Source of the DNA: Candidatus Wolfebacteria bacterium GW2011_GWA1_44_24
GTDB taxonomy: Bacteria; Patescibacteriota; Minisyncoccia; UBA6257; UBA9933
Assembly (NCBI GenBank): GCA_001001115.1
Contig: LCIO01000002.1
Coordinates: 2,848 to 66,847, forward strand
DNA length: 64,000 bases
Direction of reading: 5' to 3'
The notes beneath the pieces were generated by a model. That model worked only from the letters and a program-made list of their open reading frames with translations. It did not search any database and was not told where the DNA came from. Shown in pieces: positions 6,113 through 41,678 of this stretch (positions within the stretch are counted from its first letter, which is position 1; every line of letters begins with the position of its first letter). A program made the position numbers and the translations under genes.

Positions 6113-7159
6113 ATGAAAAATATTTTACAAAATTTCCTGTATTTGTTGTTATTCGTTGTCCTGTTCGTTTTTGTTAGTAGCGGATTATCTTATGCTACTT
6201 CGGTCAATGTTTCCGCCGATGTTCAAAATTTGTGTGGCAACGGAACGGTAAATTCAGGTGAGCAGTGCGACGGCTCGGCTTTGGGCGGGGGAAGCTGTAC
6301 GGGCCAAGGTTATGCCGGCGGCACTTTAAGCTGCAATTCCAACTGCACTTTTAATACTTCTGCTTGTACTTCCGGTGGCGGAGGAGGCGGAGGCGGTGGC
6401 GGAGGCGGATATGTCGCGCCAGCCACCGGCGTTATCCTCTCCGGCCGAGCTTATCCCAAGAGCACGATAACGGTTTTGAAAGACGCGCAAATTGCGGCAA
6501 CTACGGTTGCTGACGCAAATGCCAATTTTTCAATGAGCGTTACCGGCATTTCCAGCGGCAATTATATTTTTAGCGTTTATTCGGAAGATAGCAAAGGAAT
6601 CCGCTCATCTCTTTTAACTTTTCCTGTAAGTGTAAGTTCCGGCGCCACCACGAACATTGGCGGCATTTTTATCGCCCCCACCATCGCGGTTGATAAGAGC
6701 GAAGTTAAACGCGGCGACAACATCGCGATTTTTGGGCAAAGCGCGCCAAGCGGAGAGATTACCATTGCCGTTAGTTCTGGGGAAGAGTTTTTTGGAAAAA
6801 CTGCCGCTGATCCGAATGGCGCGTATCTTTACAACTTTGATACTACTCAACTGGATATGGGTCAGCATTTCACAAAATCAAAAGCGGCCAAAGAAGGCGC
6901 GATTAGTTCTTTTAGCAAGGCCATCAGTTTTCTCGTTGGCACAAAAAATATTGTAGCCGCGCCGCCAGCAAAATGTCCGGCCAAGGCAGATATAAACAGC
7001 GATTGCAAAGTCAATCTGGTGGATTTTTCCATTGCCGCGTATTGGTATAAGCGGACAATTAGCGCAGAATTCGCGGTTAAAGAAAAGGAGTGGTTAAACG
7101 GCGATGGCAAAGTAGATTTGGTGGATTTCAGCATTATGGCGTTTTATTGGACCGGGTAA
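6113..7159 (+). CDS. Secreted dockerin-containing protein: Cys-rich repeat, Gly12 linker, two Ig-like/carboxypeptidase-regulatory-like domains, C-terminal type-I-like dockerin
   Basis: 348 aa. Signal peptide LLFVVLFVFVSSGLSYA. CGNGTVNSGEQCDG...CNSNCTFNTSAC (myxococcal-type Cys-rich repeat pattern). Run of 12 Gly (6374-6409). The C-terminus has two Ca-binding-loop/helix segments, DINSDCKVNLVDFSIAAYWY and LNGDGKVDLVDFSIMAFYW, matching the dockerin duplicated-segment pattern. Confidence 0.8.
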   Translation: MKNILQNFLYLLLFVVLFVFVSSGLSYATSVNVSADVQNLCGNGTVNSGEQCDGSALGGGSCTGQGYAGGTLSCNSNCTFNTSACTSGGGGGGGGGGGGYVAPATGVILSGRAYPKSTITVLKDAQIAATTVADANANFSMSVTGISSGNYIFSVYSEDSKGIRSSLLTFPVSVSSGATTNIGGIFIAPTIAVDKSEVKRGDNIAIFGQSAPSGEITIAVSSGEEFFGKTAADPNGAYLYNFDTTQLDMGQHFTKSKAAKEGAISSFSKAISFLVGTKNIVAAPPAKCPAKADINSDCKVNLVDFSIAAYWYKRTISAEFAVKEKEWLNGDGKVDLVDFSIMAFYWTG

Positions 7160-17046: not shown

Positions 17047-18090
17047 ATGAAAATTCTTGCTGTTGAAACAAGTTGCGATGAGACGGCAATTGCGCTTGTT
17101 GAGGCAAAAGGCAATTTGATAAAAAACCGCTCCGCCGGCTGGCGGATTAAAATTTTAAAAAATTTAGTGGCGTCTCAAATAAAAATTCACCGGCCTTACG
17201 GCGGCGTGGTGCCGAATTTGGCAAAAAGAGAACATCTCAAAAATTTACCGATTCTTTTTAAAAAGATTCAGGATTCAGGAGTTAAGATTCAAGACTTTGA
17301 TTTAATTGCCGTTACGGTTGGTCCAGGGCTTGAGCCGGCCTTATGGACCGGCATAAACTTTGCTAAAGAATTGGCAAAAAAATGGAAAAAACCGATAATC
17401 GGGGCGAGTCATTTGGACGGACACCTATACTCTTTTTTACTTCAGCGAAAAAGAGTAAATTTGCAAAAGATTTTTCCCGCAATTGCTTTGATTGTCAGCG
17501 GTGGGCATACGACTCTGCTTTTATTGAAAGATTTAACACATTTTAAAAAAATAGGGGAAACAAGAGATGACGCCGCTGGCGAAGCGTTTGATAAAGCGGC
17601 GAGATTGCTGGATTTGCCTTATCCGGGCGGTCCGGAAATTGAAAAATCGGCAAAATTCGGCAATCCGCAAGCGATTGATTTCCCCCGGCCCATGCTTAAC
17701 CAAAAAAATTACGATTTTAGTTTTTCCGGGCTTAAGACGGCGGTATTATATTATTTAAGAGACAATAAAAACGCAAAAAAAGAAGATATTGCCGCTTCTT
17801 TTCAGCAAGCCGCTTTTGACGTTCTGGTTTTGAAAACTTTGAGAGCCGCCAAAGAATTTAAAGCCAAATCAATTTTTGTTTCCGGCGGCGTGGCGGCGAA
17901 CAAAACTTTAATGAAGGAATTCAAAAAAGCCATTAAAAAATCACCCAATTATCCGGTTGCCCAATCGCCAAATTTATTTATCACGGAATTTCCGACCGAT
18001 AATGCCGCAATGATTGCGGCCGCAGCTTACATAAATTTTTTACGGGGAAAAAAAAGACGGTTGACAGCCCAAGGAAATCTTTCAATATGA
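17047..18090 (+). CDS. tsaD: tRNA N6-adenosine threonylcarbamoyltransferase TsaD (Kae1/Gcp family)
   Basis: 347 aa. MKILAVETSCDETAIALV N-terminus, ...GPGLEPALWTGINFAKELA..., HLDGH, ASKHA-fold pattern, ...SGGVAAN... Confidence 0.88.
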   Translation: MKILAVETSCDETAIALVEAKGNLIKNRSAGWRIKILKNLVASQIKIHRPYGGVVPNLAKREHLKNLPILFKKIQDSGVKIQDFDLIAVTVGPGLEPALWTGINFAKELAKKWKKPIIGASHLDGHLYSFLLQRKRVNLQKIFPAIALIVSGGHTTLLLLKDLTHFKKIGETRDDAAGEAFDKAARLLDLPYPGGPEIEKSAKFGNPQAIDFPRPMLNQKNYDFSFSGLKTAVLYYLRDNKNAKKEDIAASFQQAAFDVLVLKTLRAAKEFKAKSIFVSGGVAANKTLMKEFKKAIKKSPNYPVAQSPNLFITEFPTDNAAMIAAAAYINFLRGKKRRLTAQGNLSI

Positions 18091-37449: not shown

Positions 37450-39630
37450 ATGGACGAAATAAAACTTGAGACGCCTCTGGAAAAAATTAAAGGCATCGGG
37501 CCGAAATTTTTGGTTAAATTGAAACATTTTAACATTGCGACCGTCAAAGATTTGCTTTGGCATTTTCCGAACCGGTATGAAGATTTTTCCAATATCTTCA
37601 AAATCGTTGATTTGCAGATTAATCAACATGCGACCGTTCGCGGAGAAATCCAATCGATTAAAATGCGGCGGACTTGGAAGCGGAAAATGTTTATCATCGA
37701 GGCGCTGATAAGCGACGATACCGGCAGCATCCGCGCCATTTGGTTCAATCAGAAATTCCTGATAATGATGCTTAAAAAAGGAAAAATGGTGAATCTGGCC
37801 GGCAAAGTGGCTGAAGCGCCTAAAGGCGGGTTAATAATGAATCATCCCATCCATGAAATCATCACTTCCTCCAAAGAGAACGGCGATTTGCGGCACACGG
37901 GCCGGGTGGTGCCGATTTATCCGGAAACCAAGGGCATCACTTCGAAGGGCATCAGATATTTATTGAAGCCGCTGCTTGATAAAATCGGCAAAATCGAAGA
38001 ATCGCTGCCCGAAGAAATTTTAAAAAAATACGGAGTTTTGGGAATTGACAAGGCCATAAAACTCGTCCATTTTCCGGAGAAAATCGATGACGCGATTTTG
38101 GCGAAAAAAAGATTTGCCTTCGAAGATTTGTTTTTTTTGAGTTTGGCTAATATCCGCCAAAGAATAAAGCTTGATAAAGAAAAAGCTTATTCATCGGATT
38201 TTGAGCTTGATGACATTAAAGAATTGCTTGCAAAACTGCCTTTTGAGCTTACTTTCAGCCAGAAAAAATCGCTTTGGGAAATTTTGCAGGACATTAAAAA
38301 ATCCCACCCGATGAATCGGCTTTTACAGGGAGACGTTGGCAGCGGAAAAACGATTGTGGCGGTTTTAACGGCGCTGGTTTTGGCGAAAGACGGCAAGCAA
38401 TCGGCTTTTATGGCGCCGACGGAAGTTTTGGCGCGCCAGCATTTTGAAACTTTCAAGAAGTTTTTTGCCGACTTTGACAAAGGCGCCGGGTTAATGACCG
38501 GTTCAATGGCAAAAGTTTTTTATGGAGACGGATTGGAAAACGATTTTAAGAAAAACGATTTAACGAAAAAAGTCGGCAACAATGAAATTAAAATTGTTTT
38601 TGGCACTCACGCGCTTATTCAAAAATACGTTAAATTCAGCGATTTGGCTTTGGTGATTATCGATGAACAGCATCGTTTCGGCGTCCGCCAGCGGGCGGAG
38701 CTTTTTAAGAATCACGGCGCAAAAGAAATGCTTCCTCATTTATTGAGCATGAGCGCCACTCCGATTCCCCGCACTTTGACTTTGGCGGTTTTCGGCGACC
38801 TTGATTTGTCCATAATCGACGAGCTTCCGAAAAACAGAAAAGCGATTATCACAAAAATTGTTGACCCTAAAAATCGCGATAAGGCTTACGCTTTTATTCG
38901 CGGCCAGGTTAAAAAAGGCAGGCAGGTTTTTGTGATTTGTCCGAGAATAGAACCGACATCTGAAAGCCAGGAAATTGAAAATCAAAACACAACTGAATCA
39001 ATTAAAAAATCTTTTTTTCATAATTGGGATAATGTGAAAATGGTGAAAGAAGAATATGAAAAACTTTCCAAAAAAGTTTTTCCGGATTTGCGGGTTTTAA
39101 TGCTTCACGGAAAAATGAAAGCCAAGGAAAAAAACGAAACAATGACGCGCTTTAATAATCGCGAAACCGATATTTTAGTTTCCACTTCGGTCATAGAAGT
39201 CGGCGTCGACGTGCCTAACGCCACCATAATGATGATTGAAGACGCGGACAAATTCGGTTTAGCTCAGCTTTATCAATTTCGCGGCCGTGTCGGCAGGGGA
39301 GAGCATCAATCTTTTTGTTTTCTTCTTACGGAGTCGTCTTCAAAAATAACTCATGAGCGGCTTAAATCTTTAATTGACGCTAAAAATGGTTTTGAATTGG
39401 CCGAAAAAGATTTGGCAATCAGGGGACCGGGAGAATTTTTGGGAACATCGGCCGGCTGGGCGCAAACCGGCGTTCCGGATATGGCGATGAAAGCGATTAA
39501 AAATCCGACGCTGGTCAAAGATAGCCGGAAAGCGGCGGAAGAATTGCTTTCAAACGATTCCGAACTTGAAAGATATCCGATTGTCAGAAAAAGATTGGAA
39601 AGCTTCCAAGAAGAAATTCATTTGGAATAA
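37450..39630 (+). CDS. recG: ATP-dependent DNA helicase RecG
   Basis: 726 aa. Wedge/OB N-terminus, LLQGDVGSGKT (Walker A), IIDEQHRFG (DEQH), ...LSMSATPIPRTL..., ...QLYQFRGRVGRG.... TATAAT (37437-37442) lies 7 nt upstream of the ATG. Confidence 0.93.
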   Translation: MDEIKLETPLEKIKGIGPKFLVKLKHFNIATVKDLLWHFPNRYEDFSNIFKIVDLQINQHATVRGEIQSIKMRRTWKRKMFIIEALISDDTGSIRAIWFNQKFLIMMLKKGKMVNLAGKVAEAPKGGLIMNHPIHEIITSSKENGDLRHTGRVVPIYPETKGITSKGIRYLLKPLLDKIGKIEESLPEEILKKYGVLGIDKAIKLVHFPEKIDDAILAKKRFAFEDLFFLSLANIRQRIKLDKEKAYSSDFELDDIKELLAKLPFELTFSQKKSLWEILQDIKKSHPMNRLLQGDVGSGKTIVAVLTALVLAKDGKQSAFMAPTEVLARQHFETFKKFFADFDKGAGLMTGSMAKVFYGDGLENDFKKNDLTKKVGNNEIKIVFGTHALIQKYVKFSDLALVIIDEQHRFGVRQRAELFKNHGAKEMLPHLLSMSATPIPRTLTLAVFGDLDLSIIDELPKNRKAIITKIVDPKNRDKAYAFIRGQVKKGRQVFVICPRIEPTSESQEIENQNTTESIKKSFFHNWDNVKMVKEEYEKLSKKVFPDLRVLMLHGKMKAKEKNETMTRFNNRETDILVSTSVIEVGVDVPNATIMMIEDADKFGLAQLYQFRGRVGRGEHQSFCFLLTESSSKITHERLKSLIDAKNGFELAEKDLAIRGPGEFLGTSAGWAQTGVPDMAMKAIKNPTLVKDSRKAAEELLSNDSELERYPIVRKRLESFQEEIHLE

Positions 39631-39639
39631 TTTGGGGTA

Positions 39640-39870
39640 ATCTTTATTAAAAAATCTTTTCCAAGCGAATATTTTCCAGCAGATTGCCTTTCAGAACCAG
39701 AATATTTTTGTTCCAGCGACAAAAATTTCTTCCCCCTCGGCGCGCTGGCTCCGACTATTGTCGGAGACCCTAAACGGAAGCGCAGTCCGCCAGCTGGCGG
39801 ACGTGAGCGGGTTGAAAAAACTTTACATTTTCCGTTGCAAATGAGTGGGAAAAGATTTTTTAATAAAGAT
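39640..39870. repeat. 231-bp element bounded by a perfect 23-bp inverted repeat, with internal GC-rich perfect palindromes (candidate MITE or structured ncRNA)
   Basis: ATCTTTATTAAAAAATCTTTTCC (39640-39662) is the exact reverse complement of 39848-39870. Inside are CTCCGAC tatt GTCGGAG (39749-39766), GTCCGCCAGCTGGCGGAC (39785-39802), and AACGGAA...TTCCGTT. The element lies between convergent recG and comFC. Confidence 0.8.
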
Positions 39871-39886
39871 GAAAAATTCGATATTT

Positions 39887-40609
39887 TTACGCTTTCGCCA
39901 AAACCAGAGCGATAATTCTTCTCGCGCCGTTTTCTTTTAAAATTCTCACGGCTTCGTTCATTGTAGCGCCGGAAGTGAAAACGTCGTCAACCAGCAGAAT
40001 ATTTTTGTTTTTTATATTCTCGGCGTTTTGAACAGTAAAACAATTTTTAACATTTTTCGCTCTTTCTTCATTATCTTTCAATTTAGCTTGGGGCAAAGTA
40101 TTTTTCGTTCTTTTCAATCCGTTAATCATCGTCAAATTGAAATTGGCGGCGATAAATTCGGCAAGCGATTTTGACTGGTTAAATCCCCGCCGGCGCAAAC
40201 TCCGGGAAGAAAGGGGAACGGGAATTACGATATAATTTTCAATTTTCAATTTACAATTTTCAATATATTTTATCGTTAATTCTCCCAGAAGCGGCGATAG
40301 ATTTTCAAAACTTTCGTATTTAAAATAATGAATCAAGTTGCGGAGAATCGGGTCATCGTAATTTCCCGCGGCGGCCAAAAGATAAGAAAACGGCTGGTTT
40401 TTTTTGCCGTGATTGCAGATTTTTTTGTTATCCGCCAATCGCGCCCGGCAAACCGGACAGAATAAAGAGGTGTTGAGTTTAATGAGAGAAAAGCATTGAT
40501 TGCAAATCGGATTTTCGCCATTGGCGATATATTTTTGGCAATCCAAACAAATTAGCGGGAAAAGGACATCAAAAACGAGATTTTTTATTTTGATTAAAAA
40601 AAGAATCAT
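39887..40609 (-). CDS. comFC: ComF-family protein (ComFC-like phosphoribosyltransferase-fold competence protein)
   Basis: The track ORF extends to 40729, but the credible start is ATG 40609 (MILFLIKIKNLVFDVLFPLICLDCQKY...). Contains a double Cys zinc motif, and the PRTase motif ILLVDDVFTSGATMNEAVRIL at the C-terminus. Confidence 0.85.
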   Translation of the reverse strand: MILFLIKIKNLVFDVLFPLICLDCQKYIANGENPICNQCFSLIKLNTSLFCPVCRARLADNKKICNHGKKNQPFSYLLAAAGNYDDPILRNLIHYFKYESFENLSPLLGELTIKYIENCKLKIENYIVIPVPLSSRSLRRRGFNQSKSLAEFIAANFNLTMINGLKRTKNTLPQAKLKDNEERAKNVKNCFTVQNAENIKNKNILLVDDVFTSGATMNEAVRILKENGARRIIALVLAKA

Positions 40610-40622
40610 TGTTATAATTGTA
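40610..40622. promoter_or_regulatory. Overlapping divergent -10 elements in the 19-nt comFC/pilM intergenic gap
   Basis: Plus strand: TGtTATAAT (40610-40618), 10 nt before the pilM ATG at 40629. Minus strand: TACAAT (40622..40617), 7 nt before the comFC ATG at 40609. Confidence 0.5.
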
Positions 40623-40628
40623 GCAGAT

Positions 40629-41678
40629 ATGTTTGATTTTTTATCCCGTTCAACTCTTGGCGTTGATATCGGCACGGCTTCCATAAAAATCGTGGAAATC
40701 GCCAAATCTTTGCCAAAGCCGAAACTCAAAAATTACGGCATTCTCAGGTCTCGGACGTATTTGGAACGGCCCAACAGCGCCATTCAAACGAATAGTCTGA
40801 AAATCTTGGAAAAGGAAACCGCCGATTTGCTAAGAATTCTCGTTAAAAAAGCGAAATTCAAAAGTCGGAACGCGGTTGCTTCCATTCCTTCTTTTTCGGC
40901 TTTTACGACTCTTTTGGAAATGCCGATAATGTCAGGAGTCGATGTTTCAAAGACCATGCCGTTTCAGATTCGCCAGCACATTCCTTTGCCGGTTTCGGAA
41001 GTCGTCATTGATTGGAATAAAGTCGGCGAGCGGGAAGACGAAGAAGGATTGAAACAGCAGATTTTGATGATAGCCGTGCCGATTGAAATCAAAAACAAAT
41101 ACCAAAACATTTTTAAGCTGGCCGGTTTGAATTTAAAATCTTTGGAAACGGAAAGCGTCAGTTTGGTCAGAGCGCTGGCCGCGGCTGATCCCAGTCCGGC
41201 TTTAATAATCGACATCGGCGCCTATTCCACCAATATCGCGGTCAGCGAAAACGGATTTCTTAAAACCAATTTTTTCAGCGATTTTGCCGGAGCTTCGCTG
41301 ACAAAAGCGATTGCCAACGGCTTGAATATCGGCGTGAAAAGAGCCGAAGAACTAAAAAAGGAAAGGGGATTAATGGGTGGCGGAGGCGATTACGAGTTAT
41401 CCACATTGTCGGAGCCTCATTTGGATGTTATAATTGAAGAAACGAATAGGGCGAAAAACAATTATGAGAAGAGTTTCAGTCGGAAAATAGAGCGCGCCAT
41501 AATTGCCGGCGGCGGCGCCAATCTGCCTGGTATTGGAAATTATTTTGAAAAGCGGCTTGGAATGGCAACAACGATAGGCAGCGCTTTTTCTCGAATAAAT
41601 TATCCGCCGGAAATTGGATTATTCTCCAAAGAATTAGGCCCGGAATTCGCGGTTGCCGTCGGTCTGGGGCTTAAATAA
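40629..41678 (+). CDS. pilM: Type IV pilus assembly protein PilM (actin-like ATPase fold)
   Basis: The ATG at 40629 gives MFDFLSRSTLGVDIGTASIKIVEI... (349 aa). ...LIIDIGAYSTNIAV... and ...IIAGGGANLPGI.... Followed by PilN/PilO-like genes. Confidence 0.85.
   Translation: MFDFLSRSTLGVDIGTASIKIVEIAKSLPKPKLKNYGILRSRTYLERPNSAIQTNSLKILEKETADLLRILVKKAKFKSRNAVASIPSFSAFTTLLEMPIMSGVDVSKTMPFQIRQHIPLPVSEVVIDWNKVGEREDEEGLKQQILMIAVPIEIKNKYQNIFKLAGLNLKSLETESVSLVRALAAADPSPALIIDIGAYSTNIAVSENGFLKTNFFSDFAGASLTKAIANGLNIGVKRAEELKKERGLMGGGGDYELSTLSEPHLDVIIEETNRAKNNYEKSFSRKIERAIIAGGGANLPGIGNYFEKRLGMATTIGSAFSRINYPPEIGLFSKELGPEFAVAVGLGLK

Follow-up and report, generated by a model that had tools for sequence, protein, structure and literature searches.

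The 231-bp element that separates recG from a comF-family gene in the 64-kb window (the whole stretch of DNA analysed here) is incomplete: 97 nt have been deleted from it, and both of its modules are cut. Module 1 is the signature of a conserved family that is found, so far, in Paceibacteria (Wolfe-, Colwell- and Liptonbacteria and relatives), which are ultra-small bacteria of groundwater. On balance, we lean towards regarding the family as a new modular, dispersed and probably mobile structured repeat that is comparable to BOX, ERIC and BIME elements and would act through a folded single strand (RNA or DNA).

The element in the window

A preliminary description of the locus had reported an inverted-repeat element between two convergent genes, and its basic features were recovered in our analysis (Table 1). 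The two 23-nt arms are exact reverse complements with 185 nt between them, and the flanking genes, which encode RecG and a ComF-family phosphoribosyltransferase, are indeed convergent. Both inner palindromes and the short direct repeat were found as described, the interior contains no open reading frame of 40 aa or more, and no target-site duplication flanks the window copy (GGGGTA before the element, GAAAAA after it). The arms form the sole long perfect inverted repeat of the 64-kb window; when up to three mismatches were allowed, the 23-mer matched at two sites only, its own arms, compared with 0.01 matches in shuffled sequences. The interior had been called atypically rich in G+C. Its G+C content is modestly elevated (0.53-0.56 at 39700-39849) and not unique locally, the recG end being equally high.

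Table 1. Features of the recG-comF locus. Positions are those of the window.
Feature	Position	Strand	Remarks
recG, 726 aa	37450..39630	+	Flank; Pfam RecG_wedge, DEAD, Helicase_C
P0 5' arm, 23-bp perfect closing helix	39640..39662	+	ATCTTTATTAAAAAATCTTTTCC
Short direct repeat AATATTTT..TCCAGC	39668 and 39701		
Module 1, P1 5' strand TATTTTCCAGCAGATTG	39670..39686	+	Partner CAATCTGCCGGAAAATA deleted in window (comparison with L002)
Module 1 core, 5' two-thirds	39692..39769	+	Conserved blocks located; covariance model match; P1a 5' CAGAAC, then complete P2 hairpin AGAATATTTTTGT-TCCAGCG-ACAAAAATTTCT; P3a 5' TCCCCCTCGG; P3b 5' CGCGCTGG; ends with ACC, the first 3 nt of the conserved ACCAAGC bulge
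P3c hairpin of module 1, palindrome CTCCGAC-TATT-GTCGGAG	39749-39766		
Deletion junction	39769..39770		97 nt absent compared with L002:6321-6417; 1 nt microhomology
Module 2 remnant	39770..39838	+	5' partner of basal stem deleted; conserved 5' loop strand (C)CTAAACGGAAGCGCA
AACGGAA/TTCCGTT pair	39773-39779 and 39830-39836		Pairing product of the deletion
Module 2 apical palindrome GTCCGCC-AGCT-GGCGGAC	39785-39802		
Module 2 conserved 3' loop strand GTGAGCGGGTTGAA	39803-39816		
Module 2 basal stem 3' strand CTTTACATTTTCCGTTGC	39821-39838		
P0 3' arm, closing helix	39848..39870	+	Exact reverse complement of the 5' arm
comF-family gene, 240 aa in databases	39887..40609	-	Flank; Pfam Pribosyltran, DZR_2

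The stop codon of recG lies 9 nt ahead of the element and that of the comF-family gene 16 nt from it. The window's RecG and that of Candidatus Wolfebacteria GW2011_GWA2_42_10 are 100% identical. The exact ComF-family protein (P0121) occurs on 21 contigs; the exact 280-aa ComF open reading frame has no database record. A search for an empty recG-comF site through ComF synteny found none, the closest ComF relatives being at most 67% identical and thus too distant.

Three alleles at one locus

We surveyed all contigs encoding exactly the RecG or exactly the ComF of the window (about 30 contigs, same aquifer population). Over up to 10 kb, their flanks matched the window with 100% identity, and the recG-comF spacer occurred among them in three forms. 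Allele B, the full-length form, was found in most contigs (L002, L003, L005, L034 and L065-L074) and is 97 nt longer than the window form (L002:6321-6417). The NCBI assembly (L001) has allele C, from which another stretch, of about 119 nt, is missing. Allele A is that of the window and was present in no other contig surveyed. BLAST of L002, L003 and L005 against the window gave 100% identity on either side of the junction. Because allele B holds everything that is in A and C, these two are deletion derivatives. Their junctions share just 1-2 nt of microhomology, which is too little for a k-mer shortcut. The region is rich in hairpins, and assembly or amplification errors could partly account for the three alleles.

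Through the deletion in the window, module 1 has lost its 3' third and module 2 its 5' strand. TTCCGTT is, in the full-length allele, part of CTTTACATTTTCCGTTGC, whose partner GCAACGGAAAATGTAAAG is deleted in the window; because the deletion removes this strand, the AACGGAA/TTCCGTT pair is a by-product. The preliminary description had thus placed this pair correctly, but it is not an enclosing native helix. The same result bears on the proposed structured RNA of about 230 nt, which was not borne out with the fold as drawn, since that fold includes a helix created by the deletion. Folding of the window element was only moderately better than that of shuffled sequences (z -4.9 on the + strand, -5.2 on the - strand), and a covariance model of module 1 (R1, described below) matched the window copy at 39659-39825 with 61 bits, compared with 173 bits for the intact copy of L002. 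This was the one match of the model in the window, also with filters off. The window copy is probably decayed and non-functional.

Architecture of the intact element

Allele B measures 328 nt from inverted-repeat arm to inverted-repeat arm and consists of the 23-bp closing helix P0, module 1 and module 2. It folds far better than the window form on either strand (-150.7 kcal/mol, z -12.0 on the + strand; -161.3 kcal/mol, z -15.6 on the - strand). Module 1 is a three-way junction of about 140 nt closed by TATTTTCCAGCAGATTG / CAATCTGCCGGAAAATA, and module 2 forms an extended hairpin (GCAACGGAAAATGTAAAG... / ...CTTTACATTTTCCGTTGC) whose internal loop, CCUAAACGGAAGCGCA / GUGAGCGGGUUGAA, is conserved.

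The consensus of module 1, written on the + strand of the window, begins with a long variable P1, followed by P1a (GGAAC/GUUCC), which covaries too. P2 comprises AGAAUA, a variable stem, the loop UCCAGCG and UUUCU. P3 opens with UCYCCCUCGG, a variable P3b and a variable P3c hairpin, and returns through an invariant 7-nt bulge (ACCAAGC), P3b' and CCUGCGGGA. The invariant blocks are AGAAUA, the UCCAGCG loop, UUUCUUCYCCCUCGG, the ACCAAGC bulge and CCUGCGGGAUGUUC, and the stems P1, P2, P3b and P3c are free to vary, with compensation.

A covarying family in Paceibacteria

BLAST of the intact element yielded a first relative in another Wolfebacteria genome (L011), a stretch with 80% identity and in a different gene context, in which the stems were changed in sequence and the pairing was kept. 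We then scanned collections for the invariant blocks TTCCCCCTCGG and CCTGCGGGATG, 25-55 nt apart. With one genome per GTDB species, the scan returned 9 true matches, 2-3 per genome, from Wolfebacteria, Colwellbacteria, Liptonbacteria and unclassified Patescibacteria. A slightly looser pattern found 43 loci in metagenomes, with Rifle and Hainich groundwater among the sources. As the collection scans used exact patterns, these copy numbers and this taxonomic range are lower bounds. One GTDB-scan match, L014 ('Spirulina'), was rejected as a chance match, all other blocks of the motif being missing.

From ten copies we built a covariance model, which found 60 matches (47 distinct sequences) in 380 kb of fetched loci; these came from Wolfe-, Colwell- and Liptonbacteria genomes and from groundwater metagenomes. 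The preliminary description had named multiple copies as a sign of a miniature inverted-repeat transposable element (MITE), and at least 2-3 copies are present in related genomes, with one in the 64-kb window. It had also pointed to covariation among homologues, and this is extensive: double changes were found in 40 of 53 pairs among the 47 distinct sequences. Standard pairs filled 93.4% of the pair cells, compared with 70.6% when partners were shuffled, although this alignment was fitted to the covariance model, which inflates the pairing somewhat. Controls in which partners were slid by 1-3 columns were 39-50% paired, and none of 500 shuffles equalled the observed covariation. An independent alignment of ten sequences (MAFFT/RNAalifold) contained compensatory changes in 36 of 53 pairs. 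Across the family, all 16 pairs of P1 showed double changes. About 50 nt of the module 1 core are invariant and kept across Wolfe-, Colwell- and Liptonbacteria.

The preliminary description had found no resemblance to RNase P, SRP, tmRNA or 6S RNA by eye, and a scan of Rfam 15 on either strand agreed, with no family above noise. The window copy, the intact L002 copy and the L041 full form gave only noise at E values up to 10, and eleven related loci at gathering thresholds gave only tRNAs and one tmRNA elsewhere. No Rfam 15 model of a self-cleaving ribozyme or of OLE, ROOL, GOLLD, HEARO or raiA RNA reached its gathering threshold. ARAGORN predicted no tmRNA or tRNA at the locus, and a search of the published literature found no such motif described for Patescibacteria, Parcubacteria or Wolfebacteria. 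The reading as a structured element was thus sound in this respect: the core of the element belongs to a strongly covarying family without an Rfam match.

Modules occur in several combinations

Further examples of module 2 come from a Hainich genome (L021, L060 and two in L023); their basal stems differ but compensate. In L021 and in both L023 copies, module 1 is nested at the apex of module 2, where it replaces the GTCCGCC-AGCT-GGCGGAC palindrome. Other loci (L041, with two copies, L043, L044 and L024) carry, after module 1, a conserved, rod-like domain of about 200 nt, which we call domain 2. Its stems covary as well, with double changes in 23 of 71 pairs (five sequences). In elements with domain 2, an outer helix closes the whole; these full forms are about 410 nt (L043) and roughly 450-470 nt (L041) long, and the full L043 element folds with z -14.2.

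Read by eye, the sequences suggest that the apical part of domain 2 is the counterpart of module 2 in the window, the two having in common the string GGAAAAU...UUUGAAnCC / GGUUGA...AUUUUCCGUU. The inner end of P0 in the window (UCUUUUCC / GGAAAAGA) is similar to the closing helices of the full-length relatives L041 and L043 and, on the same kind of reading, would be the counterpart of the helix that closes domain 2.

A third conserved motif, GUAGCGAGUGCCGAGGAGCGAGCGGGCAUGGU-[hairpin]-GAGCGAGCGACGAAACAC, lies close to several copies, and in L032 and L047 its variable hairpin hosts module 1. Small G+C-rich perfect palindromes (CCTGCCTGCCGGCAGGCAGG, TCCGCCAGCTGGCGGA) occur inside and outside the modules at positions that vary among genomes; one such palindrome is the apex of module 2 in the window. 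Two copies within one genome (L041a and L041b) differ in P2 and P3b by compensatory changes, and P1 can be shared. Closing helices differ among copies and among genomes. A perfect 15-nt outer stem was read from the sequence in L011/L015; an automatic search for the outermost helix around each copy gave output too noisy for use.

Gene neighbourhood and dispersal

Genes around the copies were called as simple open reading frames. Relative to the flanking genes, the copies lie in all arrangements: 12 (+,+), 10 (+,-), 10 (-,+) and 5 (-,-). The neighbours comprise 79 distinct proteins with no recurrent family, the biggest cluster having 3 members; those read from their sequences are unrelated housekeeping proteins and would include DnaE, IleRS, GlyRS, PheS, CTP synthase, LepA, a PBP and HtrA. 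Downstream of genes that run in the same direction as the + form, the element begins 0-35 nt past the stop codon. Two copies in one Colwellbacteria genome have in common a sharply bounded block that starts from the TAG stop of two different genes.

L011 offers a presence/absence comparison. Its element lies inside a 199-nt insert between convergent genes whose stop codons overlap in L010, and the insert has TTAA/TAA on both sides when compared with the empty L010 site. RecG of L010 and L011 is just 74-87% identical, and TTAA/TAA could alternatively reflect the need of both genes for a stop codon. No target duplication was found at L013 or L018b.

Several contigs, coming from comF (L066, L072, L074) or from recG (L007), depart from the recG-comF locus within the element and run on into other genes. 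Either the population has other, nearly identical copies, or real rearrangements have taken place through such copies.

None of the copies was found to have a mobilising gene, such as one for a transposase, recombinase or reverse transcriptase, beside it, and reading by eye and neighbour clustering found no gene for a mobilising enzyme in about 430 kb of fetched loci. Both module patterns had 0 matches in IMG/VR, and 0 matches were found in INPHARED phages and PLSDB plasmids. The idea of a young MITE with conserved termini was not upheld by these results: the closing helices vary, the window copy has no target duplication, and no transposase or IS match was found. What stands of the MITE reading is a dispersed repeat, with its inverted repeat and copy number; conserved termini or a parent IS do not. 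The two alternatives of the preliminary description, a MITE and a novel structured RNA, are each partly right and name the same object.

Strand signals

Mismatch counts, minimum free energies and z-scores conflict as to which strand folds. In favour of the recG (+) strand, one P3a position is U.G in 27 of 47 sequences and C-G in 18, a U.G pair closes the P2 loop, and G.U exceeds A.C in domain 2. In favour of the opposite strand, the minimum free energy is lower in 39 of 42 copies and the z-score in 29 of 42 (p = 0.003), energy tests that are biased by the C-richness of the + strand; in P1, moreover, A.C mismatches number 56 and G.U 20. Over the whole family, A.C/C.A mismatches number 74 and G.U 100 (35 without two fixed positions). 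This near-parity fits many drifting copies and is atypical for RNAs of which all copies are selected.

Comparison with known elements

BOX of Streptococcus pneumoniae, ERIC/IRU, REP-BIME and Correia elements are short, intergenic repeats without open reading frames that occur in both orientations. Their modules are variously combined, and their paired ends form a long closing stem. Their proposed targets are the neighbouring transcripts, and mobilisation, if any, takes place in trans. The present family resembles BOX, ERIC and REP-BIME in being made of dispersed intergenic stem-loop repeats with interchangeable modules in either orientation, a resemblance that is functional only, as those families are defined by sequences of their own, which are unrelated. 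It differs from them in its host phylum (Patescibacteria/CPR), in its low copy number (a few to perhaps tens per genome of about 1 Mb), and in a deeply conserved three-way junction with about 50 invariant nt and abundant compensatory changes. Its full forms also differ, in their length of about 410 nt (L043) to roughly 450-470 nt (L041) and in their copy-specific closing helices.

With MITEs, the family shares a perfect terminal inverted repeat (23/23), small size, the lack of an open reading frame, several dispersed copies, and one presence/absence site with a possible TTAA/TAA duplication. Unlike in MITEs, it is the interior that is conserved and not the termini, and no parent IS or transposase was identified. 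Large ornate bacterial non-coding RNAs whose function is not known (OLE, ROOL, GOLLD, HEARO, raiA) are alike in their elaborate multi-domain fold, strong covariation, narrow phylogenetic range, sometimes multiple copies, and no obvious gene partner; in contrast to them, the family is smaller, its module order is variable, and many copies are degenerate or truncated.

Yeast mitochondrial GC clusters are mobile G+C-rich hairpin clusters of an A+T-rich organelle genome. The small palindromes CCTGCCTGCCGGCAGGCAGG and TCCGCCAGCTGGCGGA, and only these, can be likened to them as an analogy, which leaves the three-way junction unexplained. The repetitive hairpin-forming elements of sponge mitochondria are a second example of this kind (PMC2800124).

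Discussion

How might the family persist? By analogy with modular BOX, ERIC and REP-BIME elements, it would be a non-autonomous, dispersed, 'selfish' structured repeat. New copies would arise by insertion into short intergenic spacers, often directly at stop codons, and selection would act on the fold of one single strand. That strand would most likely be a transcript, and because the spacers are tiny, it would come from read-through of a neighbouring gene. The long perfect closing helix may serve as a putative signal for double-stranded RNA (dsRNA) processing or stability, and the invariant three-way junction as a putative binding platform for a trans-acting factor. Individual copies would later decay, the window copy being a decayed and probably non-functional example.

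Some observations sit less easily with a dispersed repeat. Unlike the termini of true transposons, the closing helices vary from one member of the family to another; no mobilising gene was found beside any copy, the window copy has no target duplication, and about 50 invariant nt over three candidate phylum-level lineages exceed what most simple palindromic repeats have. In view of these invariant nucleotides, a trans-acting functional RNA or a ribozyme is therefore equally suited. We consider a second reading, to which we give clearly less credence: a new Paceibacteria-specific class of large (about 330 to roughly 470 nt) modular functional RNA, of which the window locus would be a decayed member. 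Such an RNA, maintained as several copies although the genomes measure only about 1 Mb, would work as a ribozyme or in a ribonucleoprotein, or else would be a mobile element made of RNA alone that spreads by its own fold.

Another form of the RNA explanation is a family of genes for a trans-acting structured non-coding RNA, with several paralogues per genome that arose by ordinary duplication and not by transposition; the RNA would serve as the scaffold of a ribonucleoprotein, sequester a protein or act in regulation, and the window copy would be a pseudogenised paralogue. The strong covariation and the concentration of the roughly 50 invariant nt in loops, the bulge and irregular helices speak for such genes, as do the two L041 copies, which keep their fold through compensatory P2 and P3b changes, the large, ornate full forms (about 410 nt in L043 and roughly 450-470 nt in L041; z -14) and the lack of a mobilising gene near the copies. 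We nevertheless think it rather unlikely. The copies are in mixed orientation relative to their neighbours and are placed right at stop codons, with no room for promoters; at the window locus, no promoter or terminator signal stood above shuffled sequences. Presence/absence between relatives, the chimeric joins, the strand ambiguity and A.C mismatches as frequent as G.U also count against it.

The last of these points would suit an element that is maintained as DNA. REP elements with RAYT transposases and non-autonomous IS200/IS605 derivatives are parallels in which DNA is the acting molecule. Here, a fold of single-stranded DNA or a cruciform would be recognised by a transposase or recombinase encoded elsewhere, and RNA would have no role. 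The absence of a consistent strand signal, with G.U and A.C near parity, is in keeping with this, and so are the instability of the locus with its three deletion alleles, the occurrence of the element in both orientations, and the long and perfect outer helices (23/23 here, 15 nt in L011/L015), which are more typical of DNA-level maintenance. The 140-nt three-way junction and the second domain of about 200 nt are, however, far more elaborate than known recognition hairpins of single-stranded DNA; we know of none among those of REP/RAYT and IS200/IS605 that is as elaborate. In addition, reading by eye and neighbour clustering found no candidate enzyme gene in the roughly 430 kb of fetched loci. 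We judge this explanation unlikely.

Hammerhead and twister ribozymes have many copies, permuted or nested arrangements and no fixed gene neighbours. Module 1 could by the same token be modelled as a new class of self-cleaving or otherwise catalytic RNA, given that it is multi-copy without gene association, that its tight three-way junction has invariant nucleotides, and that the modules are nested or adjacent. This seems improbable to us, for there is no similarity to Rfam 15 ribozyme models at E values up to 10, and the conserved nucleotides lie mostly within helices and not in junction strands.

A perfect 23-bp inverted repeat around about 185 bp at this place could suggest an inverton, or a terminator that serves the convergent recG and comF genes in both directions, but both are effectively excluded: the interior has a single orientation in all of the roughly 30 contigs of the population, no recombinase lies within 10 kb, no intrinsic terminator (a G+C-rich stem with a U-run) was found at any site in 39400-40100, and other copies of the same structure lie between co-oriented and divergent genes.

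The preferred reading, a dispersed and probably mobile structured repeat, has consequences beyond the locus. Repeats of this kind break or mis-join metagenome assemblies, as the three alleles and several chimeric joins at one locus illustrate, and they are usable as markers of strain-level rearrangement. A covariance model and intact examples (L002:6185-6525 and L043:7120-7540) are now defined, so that tests of cleavage, structure probing and expression are directly feasible. To our knowledge, the tiny genomes of CPR/Patescibacteria are almost devoid of described non-coding elements, and our search of Rfam 15 and the literature found no non-coding RNA or repeat family reported from them. A family that is conserved, strongly covarying, modular and multi-copy in no fewer than three candidate phylum-level lineages must be one of two things: a functional RNA that has gone unrecognised, or the first interspersed mosaic repeat to be described from the CPR radiation.

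Genes and spacers around the structured repeat

In the nearest RecG relative (L010, 87% identity), the gene 3' of recG is ligA, unlike in the window. Here too, a long but imperfect inverted repeat (46 nt, 78%) closes the spacer after recG, which measures 275 nt in this relative; two A+T-rich hairpins are nested inside the repeat. The spacer also contains GGGGAAAAGA, which recalls P0, the 23-bp closing helix of the 231-bp element. This spacer and the window element may be related, the spacer being a degenerate form.

Several RecG homologues of related Patescibacteria carry an extra PF13366 domain (GxxExxY protein family). Their length (855-911 aa, compared with ~726 aa for the usual RecG), the presence of PF13366, and their split BLAST coverage suggest that an ORF or domain was inserted within recG in these bacteria.

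On the other side of the element, comF and pilM lie on opposite strands, and their longest ORFs (280 aa and 392 aa, respectively) overlap by 230 nt. The database lengths are 240 aa for comF and 349-362 aa for pilM; therefore, the true starts of both genes are internal to these ORFs. One arm of a 24-nt inverted repeat (88% complementary, 368 nt between the arms) falls in the region where comF and pilM overlap; its second arm lies inside pilM.

Motifs accompanying the modules

A third motif, GTAGCGAGTGCCGAGGAGCGAGCGGGCATGGT-[variable hairpin]-GAGCGAGCGACGAAACACAGCGAGG, is conserved near copies of module 1, the ~140-nt three-way junction, and had no Rfam match. In L032 and L047, module 1 itself occupies the hairpin position of this motif. 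One metagenome contig (L030) carries both a module 1 copy and a tmRNA gene (132 bits), about 470 nt apart.

Module 2, a hairpin, has as its apex the 16-bp palindrome TCCGCC(A/G)GCTGGCGGA. This palindrome recurs in the window with one mismatch, ~100 nt 3' of tRNA-Glu, and other loci have it at unrelated sites. The perfect 20-bp G+C-rich palindrome CCTGCCTGCCGGCAGGCAGG is repeated across different genomes with 0-1 mismatch in A+T-rich surroundings. In some cases it is inserted in module 1, between stems P2 and P3, or in domain 2, the ~200-nt covarying domain that follows module 1 in some relatives. Possible readings of this 20-bp palindrome are a separate, mobile mini-hairpin and a shared recognition site.

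Positions of the features and accessions of the long RecG homologues
Feature	Location or accession
Inverted-repeat region after recG in the nearest RecG relative	L010:6192-6440
Long RecG homologues with PF13366	P0013, P0014, P0026, P0062, P0067, P0093, P0094, P0099, P0101, P0108, P0109
comF, longest ORF	window 39887-40729
pilM, longest ORF	window 40500-41678
24-nt inverted repeat, arms	window 40668-40691 / 41060-41083
Third motif	L016:7035, L019 (about 6170-6260), L022:1573, L030:2018, L032:1232 and 12802, L047:8054 and 4507, L049:4569
tmRNA gene	L030:1015-1340
Module 1 copy near tmRNA	L030:1812-1968
16-bp palindrome, module 2 apex	window 39786-39801
16-bp palindrome, near tRNA-Glu	window 17131-17146
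16-bp palindrome, other loci	L010:6788, L016:1700, L021:5501, L063:1607
20-bp palindrome	L011:9495, L013:7341, L017:1713, L041:8024, L047:1, L049:4581 and 4738, L060:59
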